Shown: positions 4,385-15,556, counted from the stretch's first letter. The stretch is 64,000 bases of DNA from an uncultured Acidobacteriota bacterium (GCA_963788785.1 CAWBIB010000005.1:111893-175892); one strand, 5' to 3'. Program-made: numbers and translations. Notes: a model not told the origin generated them from the letters alone.

Positions 4385-6627
4385 TCAATGCGGAGCGGAA
4401 CCTTCGCCAGCCTGATACACGCGTTCGACGCCATAAACGCCAGAAATGCGCCGAATGTTGACGAAGATGGTCTCAAGTTGGCGCTTGTCGGCGATTTCCA
4501 GGCTGGCTTCGATGCGGGCGTTAAGCTTGTCTGGGCGGCTTTCAAGATTGCGGATATTGGAGCCGGCAGCCGCTGATCACCGCGGTGATTTCGGCCAGCA
4601 GGCCGGCGCGATCTTTGGCACGGATAGAGAGCTGAACCGGGAAAGTAGAGGCGCTGTCGCCGCCCCATTCAACGGCGATGCGGCGTTCCGCCTGGTACAG
4701 CAAGTTTTGCACGTTGGGACAGCTCTTGGTGTGCACGGCGACGCCGCGTCCGCGCGTGATGTAGCCGATGATTTCGTCGCCAGGAATGGGATTACAACAC
4801 TTGGCGCGATAGACGAGCAAATCGTCCTGACCTTTCACGACCAGCGGGGCTTCGCCGAAGCCAAGCATGCGCTTGACGGTTTTAACCAGCGTGGGCTTGG
4901 CGTCGGCAGTTTTCGGCAACGTCGCTCTTTCGCAACCTCGCCAAACACGCGCGATAAGAATCTGGCCGCGCGGAATATTTTCCGAATCCTACCGCAGCGT
5001 ACAAATCTTCGATTTTGGAGATGCCCAGGTCGGCGGCAACCTTGAGCATGTCGGCTTCCGGAATTTTTTTCAGGCCGCGTCCGAAATGGCGAGAATCGTT
5101 TTCCAGAAGCTTGCGGCCCATCTCAGTGGCTTCTTCGCGCTCCTGCACATTGATCCAGTGGCGGATTTTACTTTTGGCGTGCGAGGATTTGACGAAGCTG
5201 AGCCAGTCGCGACTGGGGCGGTGGCCTTTCTGCGTGAGAATTTCGACCACATCGCCGTTGGTGACTTCATGACGCAACGGAACCATCTGTCCGTTGACCT
5301 TGGCGCCCACGCACTGATGACCCACTTCCGTGTGCACCGCATACGCAAAGTCTACAGGGGTAGCCCCACGCGGCAGTTCCATTACTCGGCCTTTGGGCGT
5401 GAAGGCATAAACTTCGAGCGGCGCAAGATCCACTTTTAGGGTGGTGAGAAATTCTCCGGGCTCTTCCAGTTCCTGCGACCACTCAATTAGCTGCCGCATC
5501 CAGGCGATGCGCTGGTCGTCATCGTCGCCGGCAGGTTTGCCGCCTTTGTATTTCCAGTGAGCGGCGACGCCTTCTTCCGCCAGCCGGTGCATCTCTTGCG
5601 TGCGGATCTGCATTTCAAACGCCTGGCCGCCCTGCAGCACGGTCGTGTGCAGCGACTGGTACAGATTGGGGCGCGGCATGGCGATGTAATCTTTGAAACG
5701 CCCGGGAACCGGGTGCCAGATGTGATGCACAACGCCGAGAGCCGCGTAGCAGTTGCGCTCGTTGTCGGTAATCACCCGCACCGCCAGCAAGTCATACACC
5801 TGCTCAAGACCGCGCTCCTGGCGAACAATTTTTCGCTGCAGAGAATACAAGCTTTTGACGCGGGCTTCGAGTTCGGCGGGAATTCCGCTTTCCACCAGCT
5901 TGGCTTGAATCGTGTTTTGCACTTCTTCGAGGAAGCGCTGGTGCACCGGGGCTTTATCGGTAACTTGCTTCTGCAAGGCGAAAAACGCTTCAGGTTCCAG
6001 ATACCGAAAAGAGAGATCTTCCAGTTCGCCGCGGACGATGCCCATTCCCAGGCGGTGCGCAATGGGCGCATAGATGTCCAGGGTTTCGCGGGAGATGCGC
6101 TGCTGCTTGTGCGGCTCGAGATAATCGAGGGTGCGCATGTTGTGCAGGCGGTCGGCCAATTTCACCAGCACCACGCGAACGTCGTTCACCATGGCCAGCA
6201 ACATTTTGCGGACGTTTTCCGCCTGGCGCGCTTCGGGGGCGACCATATTGAGGCGCCCGATTTTCGTAACTCCCGCCACCAAATGGGCGACCTCGGCGCC
6301 GAAGCGTTCTTCAATGCGCGAGAGCGGAAACTCGGTATCTTCGACAACGTCGTGGAGCAATGCGGCGGTCAGCGTAGTGGCGTCCAGGCGCATGTCCGCC
6401 AGGATATGAGCGACTTCTAGGAGATGCGTTAGATAGGGTTCGCCGGAACTGCGCACCTGGTCGCGGTGCCGCTCGGCAGCGATTTCATAAGCGCGGCGCA
6501 CCACCCAGGGATCTTCCGAGGGGCGGTTTTTACGGAGCTTTTCGAGGAGTTCTTCGAGGCGGGCATCAAGCTGCCGCTCGTCGCGGTCGCGATGAAAGTT
6601 CAGCGGGAGGTTGCCGGAAGACGGCAT
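4385..6627 (-). CDS. relA: Bifunctional (p)ppGpp synthetase/hydrolase RelA/SpoT, split by at least 2 frameshifts (probably sequence errors)
   Basis: HD domain (HDVVEDT), synthetase (RVKSLYS, EMQIRT), TGS, zinc finger (AKCCNPIPGD) and ACT; net +1 shifts near 4920-4970 and near 4570; rejoined C-terminus reads ISAAGSNIRNLESR...VERVYQAGEGSAPH-stop(4385). Confidence 0.9.
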
Positions 6628-6715
6628 GGGGTAGTTTACCGCTTATATTTGCTGGGGAAAAGAGGGCCCGCACGGGCGAACGTCCATCGCGCAATACAAG
6701 GCTTGTTGTAGCAAT

Positions 6716-6746
6716 AAAAAAGGCGCCCTGTGGGGCGCCCTTTTTT
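6716..6746. terminator. Bidirectional-type intrinsic terminator after the TPR gene
   Basis: A6-GGCGCCC-loop-GGGCGCC-C-T6. Confidence 0.75.
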
Positions 6747-6772
6747 ATAGTTCCCGATTCAATGAGAAGTGA

Positions 6773-7738
6773 TTAACCGCCAGCTGGCACCGGAGTATCG
6801 GCGCGCTTCTGCTTGATCTCTTTGACCTTGTCGATCAAATCGTCGGCTTGTTTGACCAGTGCGGCACGCTCTTCGTTGCTGGAGACTGTGTCGGCCTTGC
6901 GGCGATACAGGAGGTTTAGATACGCCATCGCGTCGTCATAGTCCGGACGAATCTGAATCGCTTTCTGCAGGTCGGCAATGCCCTCGTCGATCAACGCGCC
7001 TTCTTTGGCCAGATAATCAGCGCGAAGAGCTTCCGGCAACGGGTCGGTATCTTTGACCTGTTTGTTGATGTGGTCTTTGTTGTAGTCCGCGCGCATGGTC
7101 AGGTTGTTGCGAAAGGCCAGGGTCCAATCAATGACCCCGATCCAGTAGTAAGGCTCGGGATCGTTGGGCTGCAAAGCGATGTGCTTCTGGTGATACGTCT
7201 TGGATTCCTCAAACTTGGCGGGATCAAACGGGGTGCCGGCCATCTGAAAAAGAATCGAACCAATGCCGTCGATGGCGCTGAGATTATTGGGATCCTGCTG
7301 GAGCACTTCCTTGAACACCGCGATGGCCTGGTTGCCGAACTGCATATTTTCCTGCGACGGGGCGCCAGGAATATATTGCGTGGCGTAGGCAGTGGCCAGA
7401 TACAGCCGCGCGTTCATCAGCGTGGGATCCAGATCCTTGGCTTGCTTGAAATCTTCGATGGCGACGTCGTATTGCCCGTTCTTGAAGGACTGCACGCCTT
7501 TGTTCAAAAGGTCGCGCGCGCGAAGCTTGGCGCAGCCCGAAACGCCCGCCACCAGAATGAGCAATGCTGCCAGAGCAGCGGCCCGGCGAAGGGACCGCGT
7601 AGGACGGACGAGCACTGAATCCGCTCCTGCTACCGATGCTTGAGTCATCGAAAGAACCATCCCTGATGTACGCGACCAAAAGCGGTCAACGCGAGAATTC
7701 ACAACAGCCCTGCGAAGGGCAACCCCGGAAATTTCCAA
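6773..7738 (-). CDS. TPR-repeat lipoprotein
   Basis: Lipobox VSGC after a hydrophobic stretch; TPR patterns (YDVAIEDFKQAKDLDP, IADLQKAIQIRPDYDDAMAYL). True start probably 7660 or 7648. Confidence 0.8.
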   Translation of the reverse strand: MEISGVALRRAVVNSRVDRFWSRTSGMVLSMTQASVAGADSVLVRPTRSLRRAAALAALLILVAGVSGCAKLRARDLLNKGVQSFKNGQYDVAIEDFKQAKDLDPTLMNARLYLATAYATQYIPGAPSQENMQFGNQAIAVFKEVLQQDPNNLSAIDGIGSILFQMAGTPFDPAKFEESKTYHQKHIALQPNDPEPYYWIGVIDWTLAFRNNLTMRADYNKDHINKQVKDTDPLPEALRADYLAKEGALIDEGIADLQKAIQIRPDYDDAMAYLNLLYRRKADTVSSNEERAALVKQADDLIDKVKEIKQKRADTPVPAGG

Positions 7739-8182
7739 TTACTGCCCAGCTTCGAGTTTCGCGGTGATCAAGCCAACTTTGTCGATGCCCGCGCCGCGCA
7801 TAATGTCGATAGCGCGCGCAACGTCCTTGAACATTACATCGTTATCGCCTTTGACGAAAGCAACTTTCTCGGCGCGCTCTTTGAAAATCTGTTCCATGCG
7901 CGTGCCGAGCGCTTCCCAGCTGACGTCTTCGTTATTAATCTTCAGCTTGGGATTGTCTGACTTGGGATCGGCGATCACCTGGACCACCACCGTCTTGTTA
8001 TCGATTTCCTGCTGTTGCTGCTGGTTGGGATTCGGCTGGGGCACCAGGGCATCCATGCCCTTGGGGGTCAGCGGCGTGATGACCATGAAGATGATCAACA
8101 GCACCAGCAAAATATCGATCAGCGGGACGATGTTCATCTCCGCCATTGCACCGCCGGTATTTTCTCCTACGGACATTCCCAT
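7739..8182 (-). CDS. exbD: ExbD/TolR family biopolymer transporter subunit (copy 1)
   Basis: NIVPLIDILLVLLIIFMV TM with conserved Asp; KGDNDV.F..V...IDI...AGI..VGL. Confidence 0.92.
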   Translation of the reverse strand: MGMSVGENTGGAMAEMNIVPLIDILLVLLIIFMVITPLTPKGMDALVPQPNPNQQQQQEIDNKTVVVQVIADPKSDNPKLKINNEDVSWEALGTRMEQIFKERAEKVAFVKGDNDVMFKDVARAIDIMRGAGIDKVGLITAKLEAGQ

Positions 8183-8220
8183 GGCAATTCTCCTGGCGTT
8201 ACTAAAAACGTTTTAAGACT

Positions 8221-8661
8221 CTACTGCCCGGCTTCCAGCTTGGCGGTAATCAATCCCACCTTTTCGATACCGGCACCACGCATGATGTCCACGGCGCGCG
8301 CAACGTCCATGAACATTACATCGTTATCGCCTTTGACGAAAGCAACTTTCTCGGCGCGTTCTTTGAAAATCTGATCCATTCGCGAACCCAAAGCGTCCCA
8401 GGTTACGTTCTCGTTGTTGATCTTCAGCGCGGCTTGATCCGATTGGGAATCACCCAACACCTGCACCACGATGGTGTTTACCACCGGCTCTACGCGTCGC
8501 GGGTCGTTGTTCGGTTGAGGCACTAACGCCTCCAACCCTTTCGGCGTCAACGGGGTGATGACCATGAAGATAATCAAGAGCACCAGCAAGATATCGATGA
8601 GCGGAACCACGTTCATTTCCGCCATCGCGCCAGTTTGCTTATCTCCAACGGACATTCCCAT
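8221..8661 (-). CDS. exbD: ExbD/TolR family subunit (copy 2, close paralog of copy 1)
   Basis: NVVPLIDILLVLLIIFMV; ATG 8661 with GAGGAG RBS. Confidence 0.92.
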   Translation of the reverse strand: MGMSVGDKQTGAMAEMNVVPLIDILLVLLIIFMVITPLTPKGLEALVPQPNNDPRRVEPVVNTIVVQVLGDSQSDQAALKINNENVTWDALGSRMDQIFKERAEKVAFVKGDNDVMFMDVARAVDIMRGAGIEKVGLITAKLEAGQ

Positions 8662-8784
8662 GGCATTTCTCCTCGTCGAAGCACGCCGATGTTTCGGGAA
8701 TTGCGCCGCGCCGGGTGGGTGCCGGCGCGGCCTACAGCTTACAGGAACGAATGACAGCAACTACGAAACGTGAAACGCGCCAGC

Positions 8785-9237
8785 TCAATCCGCAGGTGGC
8801 GGAGGAGGAGGCGCTTCATTGGCCGAGTGGGTCTTGTCGGTAAGCAACCCGAGTTGATCCACACCGGCCGACCGGATTTCGTCAACCGCGCCGACCACGT
8901 CGCCGTATTTTGCGCGAGCATCGCTCTTCACAAATACAGTCTTGTCGAGGCGGTTGGAAATGCGGTCTTTGATTTGGTTGGTCAGGTCAGCCTTTTCCGT
9001 GGCCGTGGTGCCCAGGAAAATCTTCCCATCACGCGTGATGGCCACGATGATGGCATCGTCTTTATCCGCATTCTGCATATCGTGCGTGTTGTTGACGCTC
9101 GCCAGGTCCACCTGCTTGCCCTTTTGCAACATGGGCGTGACGACCATGAAGATGATCAACAAGACCAGCATGATATCCGCCATCGGAATTACGTTTGGCG
9201 TGGACATCTGACTGCCGACTTTTGGTTTATAGCCCAT
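8785..9237 (-). CDS. exbD: ExbD/TolR family subunit (copy 3, divergent)
   Basis: NVIPMADIMLVLLIIFMVVTP; KSDARAKYGDVV.AVD.IRSAGV..LGL. Confidence 0.92.
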   Translation of the reverse strand: MGYKPKVGSQMSTPNVIPMADIMLVLLIIFMVVTPMLQKGKQVDLASVNNTHDMQNADKDDAIIVAITRDGKIFLGTTATEKADLTNQIKDRISNRLDKTVFVKSDARAKYGDVVGAVDEIRSAGVDQLGLLTDKTHSANEAPPPPPPAD

Positions 9238-9246
9238 GAGGGGTCC

Positions 9247-9975
9247 TTACTTCTTGGTCGCGCCGCGACGGAGAATGAAGTAGTTGATGAGCTCCATCGA
9301 AGAGTTGTCCATCTCGACGTCGAAGGCTTCGACCTTGTTCGTGAAATAGTTATAGGCCCAAACGGCAGGCACGGCCACGAGCAAGCCGAGCGCGGTGGTT
9401 ACCAAGGCTTCCGCGATACCGCCGGCGACCGCGGAAAGACCGGTTGCGTGGCTGGTTTCGATACCTTTAAATGCGTTCAAGATTCCGACCACCGTGCCGA
9501 ACAGTCCGACGAACGGCGCGGTGGAACCAATCGTGGCCAGTGCCGAAAGTCCGCGCTTCATTTCCGCGTGAACGATGGCGACCGAGCGCTCGAGACCGCG
9601 CTTGGCGGCTTCGATCACGTCAGCGTCTGAAACTTGCTGCGAGGCGGACTGAAATTCCGAAAGGCCGGTCGCCACAACTTTGGCGATATGGCTCTTCTTG
9701 TTGCGCTCGGCGATGGCAATCGCTTCATCCAGCTTGCCTTCTTTGAGCGCGCCGGCGACTTGCTGCACAAACACGCGAGACTGTTTGCGCGCCGCGCTGT
9801 ACATCAATGCGCGGTCAATCATTACGCCGAAGGAATAAATCGAGAGAATGAACAGAATCACGACTACGGTGCGAGGCAGGGCGCTCATCGAACCCCACAT
9901 CGTGCGTAGGTCCCAGTTGGAACCGTTGGCCTGCTGGAACAGCATGGCCGCGTATACGTACAGTGTTGCTACCAT
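9247..9975 (-). CDS. exbB: MotA/TolQ/ExbB proton channel subunit
   Basis: LATIGSTAPFVGLFGTVVGI..AF, GIAEALVTTALGL.VAVPA. Confidence 0.93.
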   Translation of the reverse strand: MVATLYVYAAMLFQQANGSNWDLRTMWGSMSALPRTVVVILFILSIYSFGVMIDRALMYSAARKQSRVFVQQVAGALKEGKLDEAIAIAERNKKSHIAKVVATGLSEFQSASQQVSDADVIEAAKRGLERSVAIVHAEMKRGLSALATIGSTAPFVGLFGTVVGILNAFKGIETSHATGLSAVAGGIAEALVTTALGLLVAVPAVWAYNYFTNKVEAFDVEMDNSSMELINYFILRRGATKK

Positions 9976-10061
9976 TCGTTTGCTCCTTAGAATTGTCTAG
10001 CGAATCTGTTACTCAATACCGGACCAGCGCGCCTGCCCCACGACTGGAGCGCTGAACCGCC

Positions 10062-10793
10062 TTACTGACTCAGAGAGAAAACCACGTCAATGGTGGTGTC
10101 GACTTCCACCGGCACACCATTCAAAAGGGTTGGCTGATAGCGCCACTGTTTCACGGCGTCCAGCGCCGACTGGACCAGCAGCGGATGCCCGGATTCCAGG
10201 CTGAGCGACTGAATCGAGCCGTCTTTGCCGATGATGGCGTGCAGGCGAACCGTGCCGGAAATGCGGGTCTGCCGCGCCAGCGGAGGATAATTAGGCTTCA
10301 CCTGGTTGATGAGCTTGGCGGCTTGCACCTGGCCGCCCTGGTGAATGCGCGATTGCGTAACCTTCGGCGGCGGTGGCGCGGCGCCGATGCCGCCCATCAC
10401 TCCACCCAAAACACCACCGAGGCTGCCGCCGGCCACACCGCCCGGCACGCCCACTCCACCGACCGCACCCATGTCCGGGTCAGCGTCTTCCTTAATAATT
10501 TTGACGTCCTTCGGGATAACTTTTGGCGCCACCAGTTTGCCGGCATCCATCAAGTGGACCTGCGGCTTGACGTGCACAATAGCCGCGACGGGCGGCGGCG
10601 GGGGAGGCGGGGGAGGCGGCGGCGCGACCAGCAGCGTAGCCATCATCGTCTTCGGCAGCGCCTCCGTGTAAATCAGAGGGATAAGGATCAAGATCGACAG
10701 GAAGCCCACCTGAAAAATCATGGACAGCACCACCGTCCAGGGCTTGTTGGTCTTGACCGCCTTCGAAGTCGAAACCACCATATCTTCAAACAT
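10062..10793 (-). CDS. tonB: TonB family energy transducer
   Basis: N-terminal TM, poly-Pro linker, TonB-C domain (YPPLARQTRISGTVRLHAIIGKDG...AVKQWRYQP). Confidence 0.9.
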   Translation of the reverse strand: MFEDMVVSTSKAVKTNKPWTVVLSMIFQVGFLSILILIPLIYTEALPKTMMATLLVAPPPPPPPPPPPVAAIVHVKPQVHLMDAGKLVAPKVIPKDVKIIKEDADPDMGAVGGVGVPGGVAGGSLGGVLGGVMGGIGAAPPPPKVTQSRIHQGGQVQAAKLINQVKPNYPPLARQTRISGTVRLHAIIGKDGSIQSLSLESGHPLLVQSALDAVKQWRYQPTLLNGVPVEVDTTIDVVFSLSQ

Positions 10794-10799
10794 GAGTTG

Positions 10800-12074
10800 T
10801 TACCTCCCGCCTGCAGGAGCCAGACGCCCTGAGGCGCCCTCGCTTCCGCGGGCTTTGCTGCCGGCTGCGGGTCCGGCGCTTGCTGCTTGCCCCTGGCCGC
10901 GCCAATTGACCCAGGCGACCACGAGCGGAGCAGCGATACCAAAACTGGAGTACGTTCCTATCACAATTCCCACCACTAGAGCAAAGGAGAAAGCACGAAG
11001 TACCTGCCCGCCCATGAGAAATAGTACAAGCACGGTGAGAAATGTGAGTCCGCTGGTGAGAATGGTTCGCGAGAGCGTCTGATTAATGGACTTATTGACG
11101 ACGTCAGCGAACGATTCCCGACGCAGCAAACGGTTGTTTTCGCGGATGCGGTCGAAAATCACGATGGTATCGTTCATCGAGTAGCCGACCAGCGTTAATA
11201 AAGCCGCGATTACCGTTAAAGAAATTTCAAAGTGAAAGAGCGAGAACAGCCCCAGAGTAATCAGCACGTCGTGAAAAACCGCGATAACCGCCGCCGCGCC
11301 GTAAACCCACTCGAAACGAAAGGCAATATATAACAGCATGCCTCCCAAAGCATAGAGGGTGACCCAAATCGCCTGGGAGCGCAGCTCCGCGCCAACTTTG
11401 GCGCCGACAATTTCTACGTTGCGAATCGTGAAAGGTCCTAGCGCATAGCCTTGGGTCAATGCGGATACGACTGCGGGCGTCGTGCCGTCCACCTGCGAAA
11501 GGTCGCTCATATTGGTGAGCACGCCGTTGGCGCTCTTATCGCGATACTGCAAAATCCTTTTCGCCAATTGCGTGTAACGGTCTCCGGCATTGCTGGAGAG
11601 CGCCAGAGGATCGCGTTCAGTCAGAAAAGTGGTCAGCGAAGTCGGCGTCGCCGCGTTGAAATCCGGCCGGGTCGAGGTGCTCTGGCCATAAATGGCGTTG
11701 AGCGCATTCAGAACCTGGGTTTTGCTGGCGTCCAGCGCCTGATCCGTTTCGCCTTTGCGTTCCAGTCCGATGACCACTTCGTTGGCTTTCGCGCCAGGCA
11801 GGGCGTTGTCGCTAATGGCCTGAATTTCGCTGCCGGTCAAACCTTGCGCGGTCAGCGCGTTGCGCAGCTGGTCCACGTTCGGAGGTTGCGCGAAGCGCAC
11901 ATCCACGTTGGTTCCACCCCGAAAATCAATGCCGTAAGGAAGACCGCCGTGCGCTGGGCCGCCCTTCATAAACACTGAGGCCCAGCCGATCACCAGGAGC
12001 AGTGCGCTGAGGGCGAAGAAGTACTTGGCTTTGCCCATCCAGTCGATATTTGGCTGTTTGAATAGCTCAATCAT
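10800..12074 (-). CDS. secF: Protein translocase subunit SecF with enlarged periplasmic domain
   Basis: GIDFRGG, VGAELR, FHDVLIT, GYSMNDTIVIFDRIRE, SINQTLSRTILTS. Confidence 0.95.
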   Translation of the reverse strand: MIELFKQPNIDWMGKAKYFFALSALLLVIGWASVFMKGGPAHGGLPYGIDFRGGTNVDVRFAQPPNVDQLRNALTAQGLTGSEIQAISDNALPGAKANEVVIGLERKGETDQALDASKTQVLNALNAIYGQSTSTRPDFNAATPTSLTTFLTERDPLALSSNAGDRYTQLAKRILQYRDKSANGVLTNMSDLSQVDGTTPAVVSALTQGYALGPFTIRNVEIVGAKVGAELRSQAIWVTLYALGGMLLYIAFRFEWVYGAAAVIAVFHDVLITLGLFSLFHFEISLTVIAALLTLVGYSMNDTIVIFDRIRENNRLLRRESFADVVNKSINQTLSRTILTSGLTFLTVLVLFLMGGQVLRAFSFALVVGIVIGTYSSFGIAAPLVVAWVNWRGQGQAASAGPAAGSKARGSEGASGRLAPAGGR

Positions 12075-12250
12075 GCCGCTTTTGCTTCCCTTCCTTAGAC
12101 TCCGAGGGATTCGGCTTTGTTCCCGACGCGTTCTTCTCTATGGATAGAATAGAGGGTGCGCATCTTTTAACCTACAGAACGCCCGTTTGTAATCGAGTGA
12201 ACCGTGTATCCCATGAGTCCTAGTACGCGTTTAAGTGCCTTTGAAGCCTA

Positions 12251-13882
12251 CTAAATGCTTAATTCTGCCTGGCGGTCCATCTTGGCCAGGTGGTATTGGA
12301 AAATTGTCTTGGAAACGTAGATAGCCGTGAACACGTTGGCGATCAAACCGATCGTCAAGGTGATGGCAAACCCGCGGATCGGTCCAGTTCCAAAAAGGAA
12401 CAGAAAGAACGCCGATACCACGGTCGTGACGTGGGTGTCGATAATCGTTAGAAAGGCCTTGTCGAAGCCCGCCTGAACGGCCGAAGCGGCCGACTTGCCA
12501 TTACGCAATTCTTCGCGGATGCGCTCGAAAACCAGCACGTTGGAGTCGACGCCCATACCAATCGTCAGAATCACGCCGGCGATACCCGGCAGAGTGAGCA
12601 CCGCGCCAAACATGGCCAACGCGGCCAGCAAAATAAGCAGGTTCAGGATCAACGCCACCACGGCGTTGGCGCCCGAGAGCCGGTAGTAGAACAGCATGAA
12701 GATCATCACTACGAGTAAGCTCAACACCGAAGCTTGCACGCCATGGCGGATGGAATCGGCGCCCAGCGAAGGACCCACAGTGCGCTCTTCCAGATACTTG
12801 ATCGACGCCGGCAGAGCTCCGGACCGCAAAACCAAAGCCAAGTCGTGCGCGGAATCTTGACTGAAATTTCCAGTGATCTGGCCGTTGTCGTCGATGCGGC
12901 CCTTGATTACCGGAGCCGAATAGACGGTTTTTTCCAGCACGATGGCCATCTGCTGACCGATGTGCGACTCCGTGAAAGGACCGAAGGTGCGCGCCGCGTC
13001 GCCTGAAAGCGTGAACCCAACCTCGTACATCCCCGGATTGGCGGTGCTGCGGTTTTCAGTGGCGCTGCGTAAATCGCGTCCCGTAATGATCGACGTGCGG
13101 CTGAGCAGGTACCAGCTCTCGGTGGGAGTCGCTCCAGAGCCGGTGGTTGTCGGCGCGCGGCCTGGTACCAGTTCTGTTCCGGCTGGCAAAACTCCTCCAT
13201 GCCGCTGCAGCGCTTCGGCCTGCGAGGTGTATACTGCGGGATCCATGACCAATTTCAATTGCAATTGCCCGGTCTGCTGAATCACGTCTTTCGCGCGCGT
13301 GGGATCGCCTTCCCCAGGAAGCTGCACGAGAATTTCATTGTCGTTACGGCCATGCAGCTGAATCGTCGGCTCGGTCAAACCCAACGCGTTAATACGACGC
13401 TCGATGGTTTCGAGAGACTGCGTCATCGTCGTGGACTGGATTTGCGCGATCGCGCTGGGCCGCATGGTTAGCGTGAAACCGTTCTGCTCGCCGGCGGTCG
13501 AACTCAGATCCCACAACCCGGCGTACTGCGTGCTGATCAAATCGCGGAACGCACCGAGCTGGTTGGCATCTACGTTGCGAATGATGATGTGGGTGTCGTC
13601 GCTGCGGCGCACTTCGTCGTAGGTAATATTTTTGGCCCGCAGCGCGGTCGTCAAGCGGTCCACCGCTTGGTCCGTCTCCTGCGCGATGGCTTCTTGCACC
13701 TGCACTTGCAGAATCAAGTGCGTGCCGCCCTGTAAGTCCAGGCCCAGCTTGATCTGGTGCGCGAAATTATCTTTGATTGTCGCTACGGACGTGGGAAACG
13801 TCGGGTAGCCCACCAGAAAATAAACGCAGAACAAAATTACCGCCAGGATGAACAGCGCTTTCCACTTCAGGTTAGGAGTCAT
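12251..13882 (-). CDS. secD: Protein translocase subunit SecD
   Basis: LGLDLQGG, IERRINALG, VGPSLG, GMGVDSNVLVFERIREE, IRGFAITL. Confidence 0.96.
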   Translation of the reverse strand: MTPNLKWKALFILAVILFCVYFLVGYPTFPTSVATIKDNFAHQIKLGLDLQGGTHLILQVQVQEAIAQETDQAVDRLTTALRAKNITYDEVRRSDDTHIIIRNVDANQLGAFRDLISTQYAGLWDLSSTAGEQNGFTLTMRPSAIAQIQSTTMTQSLETIERRINALGLTEPTIQLHGRNDNEILVQLPGEGDPTRAKDVIQQTGQLQLKLVMDPAVYTSQAEALQRHGGVLPAGTELVPGRAPTTTGSGATPTESWYLLSRTSIITGRDLRSATENRSTANPGMYEVGFTLSGDAARTFGPFTESHIGQQMAIVLEKTVYSAPVIKGRIDDNGQITGNFSQDSAHDLALVLRSGALPASIKYLEERTVGPSLGADSIRHGVQASVLSLLVVMIFMLFYYRLSGANAVVALILNLLILLAALAMFGAVLTLPGIAGVILTIGMGVDSNVLVFERIREELRNGKSAASAVQAGFDKAFLTIIDTHVTTVVSAFFLFLFGTGPIRGFAITLTIGLIANVFTAIYVSKTIFQYHLAKMDRQAELSI

Positions 13883-13912
13883 GGTCAGAATTTATAGGGC
13901 CGCGAAGTGGGC

Positions 13913-14230
13913 TTATTTTGCATCTTCCGATGCCTCCACCTGGGCGATAGCTGCTCGCGATACGCGAATTTTTACTTGCGGCTCTGAGGAAATCTTCAAA
14001 ATCACCGAATCCCCATCGATGCCGCTGATGGAGCCGTAAATTCCACCGGTGGTCAGAATCTTGTCGCCGGTTTTGAGCGCCGCCAGCATTTCCTGGGTCT
14101 TTTTGCGCTGCTTCTGCTGCGGCATGATCACCATCAAATACATGATGCCGAACATCAAGCCCAGCGGAATCAGGAACCCGCCAAAACCCCCTGCTGCGCC
14201 GCCAAGTTGTAAGAATGTTGCCAATGTCAT
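13913..14230 (-). CDS. yajC: Preprotein translocase subunit YajC
   Basis: PQQKQRKK..MLAALK.GDKILTTGGIYG. Confidence 0.94.
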   Translation of the reverse strand: MTLATFLQLGGAAGGFGGFLIPLGLMFGIMYLMVIMPQQKQRKKTQEMLAALKTGDKILTTGGIYGSISGIDGDSVILKISSEPQVKIRVSRAAIAQVEASEDAK

Positions 14231-14398
14231 GAAGCTTTTTCGCCCAACCCTTCTTGCCCCGAATCTTGATTCGCAGCTTTAGAAACCCTGTTGGCGACAA
14301 AAACCGCCAGTGGCGAGAGTTTCCTCGCTCCCGAATTTCACCGTGTTCTCTGCCTTGGTGCCCCGCGGACTGCCGAATCGCGCGACTATTTCAGTGCA

Positions 14399-15556
14399 TT
14401 ATGCTGGCCCAGCAGTATAACGCGCGCGCATCTCCGATGAGAAATTCGCTAGGTTCCCAAACTCGATAGCCTCGCGGATTTGCCGCATTATGTCAAGGTA
14501 AAAGTGGACATTGTGGTGGGTCGCCAGAATCGCCGCAGTCATCTCTCCGGCCGCGAAAAGATGCCGTAAATAGGCCCGCGTGTAGCGCCGGCAGACGGAA
14601 CAACTGCAATTCGCATCGATGGGATTCTGATCTTCGGCGTAACGTTTGCCCTTGATCAGCACGCGGCCTTCGCTAGTATATAAGCAAGCATGCCGCGCGG
14701 CGCGTGTTGGCAGCACGCAATCCATCATGTCGATGCCTAGCGCCACGTAATCGGCAAGTTGCTCCGGACGGCCTACACCCATCAAATAACGCGGCCGTTC
14801 GCGCGGCAGTAGCGCCGTAACTTCGCCGGCCATCTCGCAAGTAACCTCATGCGGCTCGCCAACTGCCAGTCCACCCACGGCGTAACCGGGGAAATCCAGT
14901 TCCAAAAGTTGCCGCGCACTTTCGCGCCGCAAATCAGCGAAGGTAGCGCCTTGCACAATTCCAAATTGCCATTGTTCGCCGGCGACATTCGCCGGATTGG
15001 TAGCAGGATCGTTGCGCGCGGCATTTTCCAGAAAATATTTTCGCGCCCGGTTGGCCCACGCGGTGGTCCGCTTCAACGCCGATTCGGCTTTATCGCGCGG
15101 CGCGGGAGTCTCGATACACTCATCGAGCACCATCGCGATGTCCGACCCCAGCGCCAGCTGAATTTCGGACGCCCGCTCCGGCGTCAATAAATGTTCCGAC
15201 CCATCCAGATGGGATCGGAAGCGCACACCCTCATCGGTAATCTTCCGCAAATCAGAAAGACTGAAGACTTGATACCCGCCCGAGTCGGTAAGAATCGCGC
15301 CATTCCACGACATGAATTTATGCAGCCCACCCATACGGCGGACCAGTTCATGCCCTGGGCGCAAAAATAAATGGTAGGTATTGCCAAGAATAATGCTGGC
15401 GCCCAGCGTCTCCAAATCTTCCTGGCGCAGCGCTTTAACGCTAGCCTGGGTTCCGACCGGCATAAACACCGGCGTTTCAATCACCCCGTGTGGGGTAATT
15501 AAACGTCCGCGGCGCGCACCAGTAGCGTTGGTATGGAGAACTTCGAAAGAAAACAC
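14399..15556 (-). CDS. tgt: tRNA-guanine transglycosylase
   Basis: TPVFMPVGTQ, NTYHL, LTDSGGYQVFS, DCVLPTR, Zn site CSCSVC. Confidence 0.97.
   Translation of the reverse strand: MFSFEVLHTNATGARRGRLITPHGVIETPVFMPVGTQASVKALRQEDLETLGASIILGNTYHLFLRPGHELVRRMGGLHKFMSWNGAILTDSGGYQVFSLSDLRKITDEGVRFRSHLDGSEHLLTPERASEIQLALGSDIAMVLDECIETPAPRDKAESALKRTTAWANRARKYFLENAARNDPATNPANVAGEQWQFGIVQGATFADLRRESARQLLELDFPGYAVGGLAVGEPHEVTCEMAGEVTALLPRERPRYLMGVGRPEQLADYVALGIDMMDCVLPTRAARHACLYTSEGRVLIKGKRYAEDQNPIDANCSCSVCRRYTRAYLRHLFAAGEMTAAILATHHNVHFYLDIMRQIREAIEFGNLANFSSEMRARYTAGPA

Follow-up and report, generated by a model that had tools for sequence, protein, structure and literature searches.

A conserved gene run with paired ExbD paralogues and a TPR lipoprotein, the probable sole Ton system of an Acidobacteriota genome

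The stretch of DNA analysed here, hereafter called the window, comprises 64,000 nucleotides of an uncultured soil bacterium of the Acidobacteriota (C5:111893-175892 of a 5.13-Mb assembly that is 94% complete). Its positions 6773-10793 hold six closely packed minus-strand genes, each identified by Pfam: one tonB, one exbB, three exbD genes and a gene for a tetratricopeptide repeat (TPR) lipoprotein (Table 1). Judged from sequence and from the inventory of related genes in the genome, the cluster is very probably the genome's single, constitutively placed Ton system, serving ordinary nutrient uptake. Acidobacteria, which belong to the most abundant bacteria of soil, depend heavily on import through TonB-dependent systems; one conserved operon energising all of this import would be a single genetic target for acidobacterial nutrient uptake.

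Genome-wide inventory of motor genes

The genome contains four ExbD-family genes, the three of the window and a tolR on contig C9, and three MotA/ExbB-family genes, namely the exbB of the window, an orphan on C3 and, again on C9, a tolQ. Both C9 genes belong to a complete tolQ-tolR-tolA-tolB-pal-cpoB cluster (approximately 1,328,400-1,334,000), with scores of 140.4 bits for Pal (cut-off 125.35), 96.5 bits for YbgF (cut-off 90.1) and 302 bits for TolB. At least 15 receptors with a Plug domain are scattered over the genome. As receptors need an ExbB-ExbD motor and no other pair is present in the genome, the window cluster must serve them.

An earlier note on this DNA had described one TonB, one ExbB, three ExbD proteins retaining the transmembrane Asp and a TPR lipoprotein in a single run, with no receptor, tolB or pal in the window. 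The Pfam matches, the Asp residues and the lipobox agree with this description; all 15 Plug matches of the genome lie outside the window, the seven open reading frames (ORFs) of at least 550 amino acids within it include no receptor, and tolB and pal both sit on C9. The term receptor-less describes the window, not the system. The tonB and exbBD genes are often unlinked from receptor genes (PMC12204202), so distance from the receptors is the normal state.

Twenty-five ORFs of the genome contain a TonB_C domain. Many of these have cleavable signal peptides, not TonB-type anchors, and at least two others (C3:112865 and C3:486200) have anchors like that of the window TonB (S-x3-Q ... IP), so that one motor may serve several transducers.

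The earlier note had further proposed an uncharacterised envelope function in place of uptake, pointing to the Agl gliding motor of Myxococcus. A dedicated heteromeric motor, driven by the proton-motive force (PMF) and using the TPR protein as adaptor for a non-uptake process (Agl/Glt-like gliding, secretion or envelope remodelling), would account for the layout of one ExbB-like gene, several unlike ExbD-like genes and a TPR lipoprotein, and for a window without receptor. ExbB and ExbD also score slightly higher with the tolQ and tolR models than with those of exbB and exbD, and a TPR gene with a tolQ-like gene and an unlike tolR-like pair is the published layout of unexplored motors (PMC12204202). 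However, such a motor would leave the 15 or more receptors without an energiser, in a genome in which Tol-Pal is complete elsewhere and there is no other ExbB-ExbD pair. The transducer is a plain TonB without a vWA domain and is not GltG/J-like, and GltE, Tgl and AgmX score only 17-20 bits against cut-offs of 40-225. These Agl-Glt partner models remain at noise level with the window proteins: for the TPR protein, GltE reaches 17.6 and Tgl 19.6 bits, each against a cut-off of 225. The myxo_SS_tail model reaches 17.1 bits against 40. We therefore consider a non-uptake motor highly improbable, and neither the uncharacterised function nor the likeness to Agl is upheld.

Some observations nevertheless weigh against assignment to a single Ton system. 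The window TonB departs from the SHLS motif (S-x3-H-x6-L-x3-S in the transmembrane helix), having Gln in place of the His reported to be essential in E. coli (PMC12215075). ExbB scores 168.7 bits with the tolQ model TIGR02796 (cut-off 221) and 138.5 bits with the exbB model TIGR02797 (cut-off 206.2). Lastly, the 6% of the genome that is missing could contain a second ExbBD pair. With the orphan ExbB as query, no third MotA/ExbB-family gene was found in 23 of 24 related genomes, G301 being the sole exception; in the 23, the search matched only the cluster exbB and, in 21, also a TolQ-like gene with a weaker score. This weighs against a second pair hidden in the missing part. As separators of Ton from Tol, hidden Markov model scores proved uninformative in this phylum, both models staying below their cut-offs, and ExbB is equally distant from the solved TolQ and ExbB chains (E 1e-29 to 1e-25). 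Since these scores cannot part ExbB from TolQ, the assignment to Ton rests on the genome-wide inventory and the separate Tol-Pal cluster.

The orphan itself (G000:C3:940280-941008; L002:8280-9008, minus strand) encodes an ExbB/TolQ-like paralogue of 242 amino acids, 37% identical to the window ExbB. Next to it are a gene for a WecA-like transferase and a DUF1015-like ORF, but no exbD. Only one of the 24 related genomes has an orthologue, with 67% identity.

TonB and ExbB

TonB has one transmembrane helix at approximately residues 18-42, a run of twelve prolines at residues 58-69 and the PF03544 domain over residues 166-241. The helix is encoded by positions 10668-10739 and contains S-x3-Q (S-MIF-Q), compared with S-x3-H in E. 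coli. The replacement of His by Gln is a one-residue variant, with the anchor retained. Every Terriglobia locus sampled has Gln, Glu or Asn at this position, and the other acidobacterial classes have His (loci L113-L132); the TolA of the genome retains S-x3-H. In the first transmembrane helix of ExbB, a Trp that the rest of the phylum retains is replaced by Tyr in the order to which the genome belongs. Co-variation of the two positions was considered as a sign of a shared interface and rejected because it is not strict, the replacement of His being class-level and that of Trp only order-level.

All genes of the run are under purifying selection, with ratios of non-synonymous to synonymous substitution (dN/dS) of 0.005-0.15. 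The constraint on ExbB is far tighter than that on TonB, the ExbD genes or SecF of the same loci: the protein is 98-100% identical to its relatives at synonymous distances (dS) of 0.4-0.9, with dN/dS values of 0.005-0.018.

Conservation of gene order

The order secD-secF-tonB-exbB-exbD(n)-TPR-relA is kept, as far as the contigs reach, in 80 of 80 Acidoferrales-type loci from metagenome-assembled genomes (MAGs), and secD-secF-tonB in all the informative ones. The number of exbD ORFs varies among the 80 loci: three in about 58, two in about 20 and apparently four in one. Across the phylum, a full-length TPR homologue was found in about 60 of 301 genomes, among them all listed genomes of this bacterium's own class, and two exbD genes lie immediately upstream of the TPR gene in 25 of 29 short loci. 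Longer loci from several families (L113-L132) have the order tgt-(short ORF)-secD-secF-tonB-exbB-exbD-exbD-TPR in 17 of 20 cases, often followed by relA (4882-15556 in the window); relA is 3' of the TPR gene in most relatives. The exceptions are L121 and L122, which have no exbD, and L123, which has three exbD genes downstream on the opposite strand.

The module and its neighbourhood thus appear to be old and stable in Acidobacteriota, with the order kept across several families and classes. Synteny across the phylum, which the earlier note had named as a check of its proposal, is indeed conserved, but this is equally expected of a housekeeping Ton operon and does not discriminate between the two readings.

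Loci of the Acidoferrales type, with the same order and with TPR proteins of 71-75% identity, are also carried by MAGs titled Dormiibacterota, Verrucomicrobiia, Methylomirabilota, Eisenbacteria, Udaeobacter or Cybelea (L020, L027, L036, L041, L054, L060, L062, L064 and L074). These MAGs are probably mislabelled or mixed bins.

The ExbD paralogues

The transmembrane Asp is kept by all three ExbD proteins of the window (PMADIML, PLIDILL) and by 101 of 101 relatives having that region. ExbD2 and ExbD3 are 77% identical in amino acids and 78% in nucleotides, and their likeness begins 12 nucleotides upstream of the two start codons; ExbD1 shares only 33-38% identity with each of them. The window encodes two kinds of ExbD, not three different subunits. 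A tree of 105 ExbD sequences was built by quick search and rooted on the TolR of the genome as lone outgroup; some of its branches are long. In it, the ExbD proteins of later position (lineage B, with ExbD2 and ExbD3) are split from those of position 1 (lineage A, with ExbD1) by a branch of 1.82, with a Shimodaira-Hasegawa-like approximate likelihood ratio test (SH-aLRT) value of 100; lineage A is paraphyletic under the TolR rooting. Every member of the class has both lineages, as do three families from other parts of the phylum, and the gene for ExbD-A is always the first of the exbD genes, phylum-wide.

The extra ExbD copies in the tree are all duplicates of B and have arisen several times. 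ExbD2 of the window clusters only with copies from L003, L006 and L008 and is missing in L005. The third ExbD is an optional, order-level addition. Since all extra copies are B duplicates, and ExbD2 is absent or split in relatives, the conserved core consists of TonB, ExbB, ExbD-A, ExbD-B and the TPR protein. The part of the earlier note's proposal that concerns a heteromeric motor with a dedicated TPR adaptor is plausible, as the TPR gene and both ancient ExbD lineages have stayed together across the phylum.

Between them, the two B copies of the window evolve at different rates. ExbD3 is 92-93% identical to its orthologues (dN/dS 0.055-0.11), and ExbD2 changes about three times faster. The idea that ExbD2 is a decaying copy can be ruled out for the window from its dN/dS values of 0.08-0.13 (0.08 with the orthologue of L008). 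In L003 (L003:5949-6400), the ExbD2 orthologue is broken into two ORFs of 56 and 92 codons, which reflects either a frameshift or pseudogene or an assembly error. A fourth ExbD in that locus was rejected: the split ExbD2 explains the apparent extra gene. ExbD2 was also considered as partner of the orphan ExbB on C3 and discarded, as the one related genome with an orthologue of the orphan has two exbD genes, and genomes with three exbD genes lack the orphan.

The TPR lipoprotein

The signal peptide of the TPR protein ends in the lipobox V-S-G-C, of which the Gly-Cys is invariant in 31 homologues, so the protein is a lipoprotein. It has a mean column identity of 75%, unusually high for a TPR protein, and long invariant patches (YIPGAPS, DPEPYYWIGVIDW and RPDYDDAMAYLNLLYRRKAD). 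Of over 8000 scored homologues, the top 120 reach at least 75% identity. An AlphaFold2 model is all helical, with ten helices and a mean predicted local distance difference test (pLDDT) value of 89.6. Foldseek searches with this model returned generic TPR proteins only, MamA being the best compact match (target TM-score 0.88). A profile search of the PDB sequences yielded no specific relative, only designed consensus TPRs, OGT and similar proteins, and there is no match to TIGR02795 (tol_pal_ybgF) at E <= 0.01. The predicted fold indicates a protein-binding scaffold, nothing more specific. The invariant patches, and the constant position of the gene behind the final exbD, speak for a single specific partner that has been conserved. 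Ton accessories of this sort are so far known only from Vibrio, and the TPR lipoprotein may represent a widespread one.

The TPR protein might instead be a housekeeping envelope protein outside the Ton machine, which merely shares the old neighbourhood tgt-secDF-ton-TPR-relA. Adjacency alone is weak evidence, since the unrelated tgt and relA are equally kept phylum-wide; three of the 20 longer loci (L121, L122 and L123) have a TPR homologue but no co-oriented exbD run upstream, and the generic fold offers no diagnostic match. On the other hand, the TPR gene comes next after the final exbD on the same strand in 25 of 29 short and 17 of 20 longer loci, and the two frames often overlap or nearly do so; terminator-like hairpins are located 3' of the TPR gene and not before it. 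Its conservation is unusually high for a protein of the TPR class, and TtpD2 of Vibrio provides a precedent for a Ton accessory (PMC6957404). A role outside the machine is, on balance, rather unlikely.

In L122 (G279:C1:3388400-3399800) and L123 (G249:C1:651900-663200), both from genomes of larger size, the TPR homologue is found inside longer frames of approximately 897 and 676 amino acids, respectively, without co-oriented exbD upstream. These may be fusions or relocated paralogues; G279 carries three TPR homologues.

Proposed working of the motor

On the model of the homologous E. coli structures, five ExbB subunits would enclose two ExbD helices, the Asp of which carries protons, and the transmembrane helix of TonB would be located on the rim of the ExbB pentamer. 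Proton flow via ExbB and the ExbD Asp would drive movement, and the proline-rich arm and C-terminal domain of TonB would reach the TonB boxes of the receptors and pull their plugs. The clients would be the 15 or more scattered TonB-dependent receptors; several further TonB-like proteins whose anchors are similar are likely to be clients as well. The TPR lipoprotein would be a periplasmic accessory of the machine, like Vibrio TtpD2.

ExbD-A and ExbD-B may occupy the two ExbD positions as a heterodimer, in which ExbD2 could stand in for ExbD3 as an alternative B subunit. In the E. coli complex, of composition TonB1:ExbB5:ExbD2, the ExbD dimer is asymmetric (PMC12215075), and in Myxococcus, with a tonB1-exbB1-exbD1-exbD2 cluster, deletion of either exbD gives an oar-like phenotype (PMC6434023). 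In Xanthomonas, however, exbD2 is dispensable for iron uptake but required for signalling through TonB (PMC3551730), a pattern more in keeping with task sharing than with an obligate heterodimer.

Such sharing could take the form of unmixed stators within the same Ton system, with ExbB5-(ExbD-A)2 and ExbB5-(ExbD-B)2 dividing the work between transport and trans-envelope signalling, or between different TonB paralogues, and with ExbD2 as a third flavour. Every ExbD copy has the Asp and hence could act alone, and the 25 TonB_C proteins of the genome could need different stators. In Xanthomonas, exbD1 serves iron uptake and exbD2 only the TonB-dependent induction of pectate lyase, with a third exbD just downstream (PMC3551730); the second exbD of Flavobacterium psychrophilum is likewise reported, in work cited there, to be unneeded for iron uptake. 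Against this, A and B are adjacent and in a 1:1 ratio in nearly every sampled genome, the single exbD deletions of Myxococcus share one phenotype, and the two ExbD positions of the solved complex are non-equivalent, favouring specialised partners. We regard unmixed stators as possible rather than probable.

A more complete device can be put forward, tentatively and with the same reserve: an Acidobacteriota-wide, five-part Ton machine in which ExbB5 holds an obligate A/B heterodimer, TonB is swapped among paralogues, the TPR protein is needed for force transmission or client choice, transcription is shared with the PMF-driven SecDF, and turnover of extra ExbD-B copies tunes the stator. The always-paired ExbD-A and ExbD-B are a natural case for asking whether unlike subunits fill the two plug positions of a 5:2 motor.

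Comparison with known systems

The Ton system of E. coli (PMC12215075) has the same three families with the same domain layout, including the ExbD Asp and the proline-rich spacer and C-terminal domain of TonB, and is likewise the sole energiser of many scattered receptors. It differs in that its tonB is unlinked from exbBD, while here all are in one run; in having one ExbD, as opposed to two old paralogues and a duplicate; and in the essential His of its TonB helix, which is Gln here. The window run also has a TPR lipoprotein gene attached and sits directly behind secDF.

Clusters with more than one exbD are known from other phyla. The arrangement exbB-exbD-exbD-tonB2 occurs in Riemerella, Flavobacterium psychrophilum and Acinetobacter (PMC4446302), and Xanthomonas campestris has a tonB1-exbB1-exbD1-exbD2 cluster and a third exbD (PMC3551730). 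By gene layout, these and the Myxococcus cluster resemble the window in having two or three tandem exbD genes after one exbB, and the paralogues there are genetically non-redundant. They differ in that no TPR gene is reported and in that their genomes have further Ton sets, whereas the window cluster is the sole one. In Fibrobacter, an ExbB-ExbD-ExbD-TonB set lies beside TPR genes (PMC6851124).

The TonB2 operon of Vibrio, ttpB-ttpC-exbB2-exbD2-tonB2-ttpD, ends with the gene for TtpD2, a TPR protein essential for TonB2-dependent siderophore uptake (PMC6957404). The likeness to the window, where the TPR gene is also the last, is one of position and repeat class only. TtpD2 has 425 amino acids, compared with approximately 265 for the mature window protein; the Vibrio operon has a single ExbD, is regulated by iron and includes TtpB and TtpC, a second MotA/ExbB-like protein, both absent from the window cluster. 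Tol-Pal with CpoB/YbgF shares with the window a 5:2 motor, a TonB_C-like transducer and a TPR protein in last place. It differs in its tolB and pal genes and in YbgF, to which the window TPR protein has no match; the genuine Tol-Pal and CpoB are those of C9.

The Agl-Glt machinery of Myxococcus (AglR, AglQ and AglS) also combines a single TolQ/ExbB-like subunit with at least two TolR/ExbD-like ones, and has TPR lipoproteins and TonB_C proteins among its partners. Unlike it, the window has a plain TonB as transducer, and the genome needs the cluster for its receptors. The vWA clusters of the PVC group (PMC12204202) likewise combine a TPR protein with a single channel subunit and a pair of unlike plug subunits; they have a membrane-tethered vWA transducer of unknown role and the TPR gene first, whereas the window has TonB and the TPR gene last.

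Ton clusters with several exbD genes and Ton operons ending in a TPR gene have both been described already, and the window system is of a known kind. In the literature we found no description of the phylum-wide fixed order behind secDF or of the strict A/B pairing in Acidobacteriota, nor of the change of the SHLS His to Gln, Glu or Asn, which affects every sampled Terriglobia locus but not the other classes. These are modest points of novelty, and they leave the basic picture of the Ton system unchanged.

Gene layout and flanking features

Between secF and relA there are no ORFs beyond the six genes of the run, and no TtpB or TtpC gene is among them. The exbD2 gene probably starts at the ATG at 8661, in agreement with the start of ExbD3; the TPR gene probably starts at 7648 or 7660.

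Table 1. Features of the Ton run and its flanks, with positions counted from the first nucleotide of the window.
Feature	Position	Strand	Description
secD	12251-13882	minus	Directly upstream context, outside the motor
secF	10800-12074	minus	SecD_SecF_C, 213 bits; context, outside the motor
tonB	10062-10793	minus	N-terminal transmembrane anchor, Pro12 spacer, Gly-rich stretch, TonB_C; PF03544 69.3 bits, TIGR01352 44.9 bits
exbB	9247-9975	minus	PF01618 MotA_ExbB, 117.6 bits; predicted proton-channel subunit of the 5:2 motor
exbD1 (ExbD-A lineage)	8785-9237	minus	PF02472, 89.2 bits; position-1 group of the tree
exbD2 (extra ExbD-B copy)	8221-8661 (ORF open to 8760)	minus	PF02472, 71.4 bits
exbD3 (ExbD-B lineage, conserved second exbD)	7739-8182	minus	PF02472, 77.8 bits
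TPR lipoprotein gene, last of the Ton run	6773-7648 (ORF to 7738)	minus	TPR_11, 61.8 bits; about five helix pairs
Two G+C-rich hairpins, TPR stop to relA start	6666-6739	minus	Likely transcript end; consensus matches only
relA/spoT homologue	4882-6627	minus	HD_4, RelA_SpoT and TGS domains; downstream context

A scan for promoters gave six matches, compared with 5.3 in shuffled sequence, and no promoter is claimed. The stop codon of secF is separated from the ATG of tonB by 6 nucleotides, which suggests a joint transcript of two PMF-driven envelope machines; secD and secF are probably co-transcribed with the Ton run. Of the two terminator-like sites 3' of the TPR gene, one (6681-6666, minus strand) has a T-rich tail and the other (6722-6739) has seven G-C pairs. 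These hairpins would fit a transcript end at that place.

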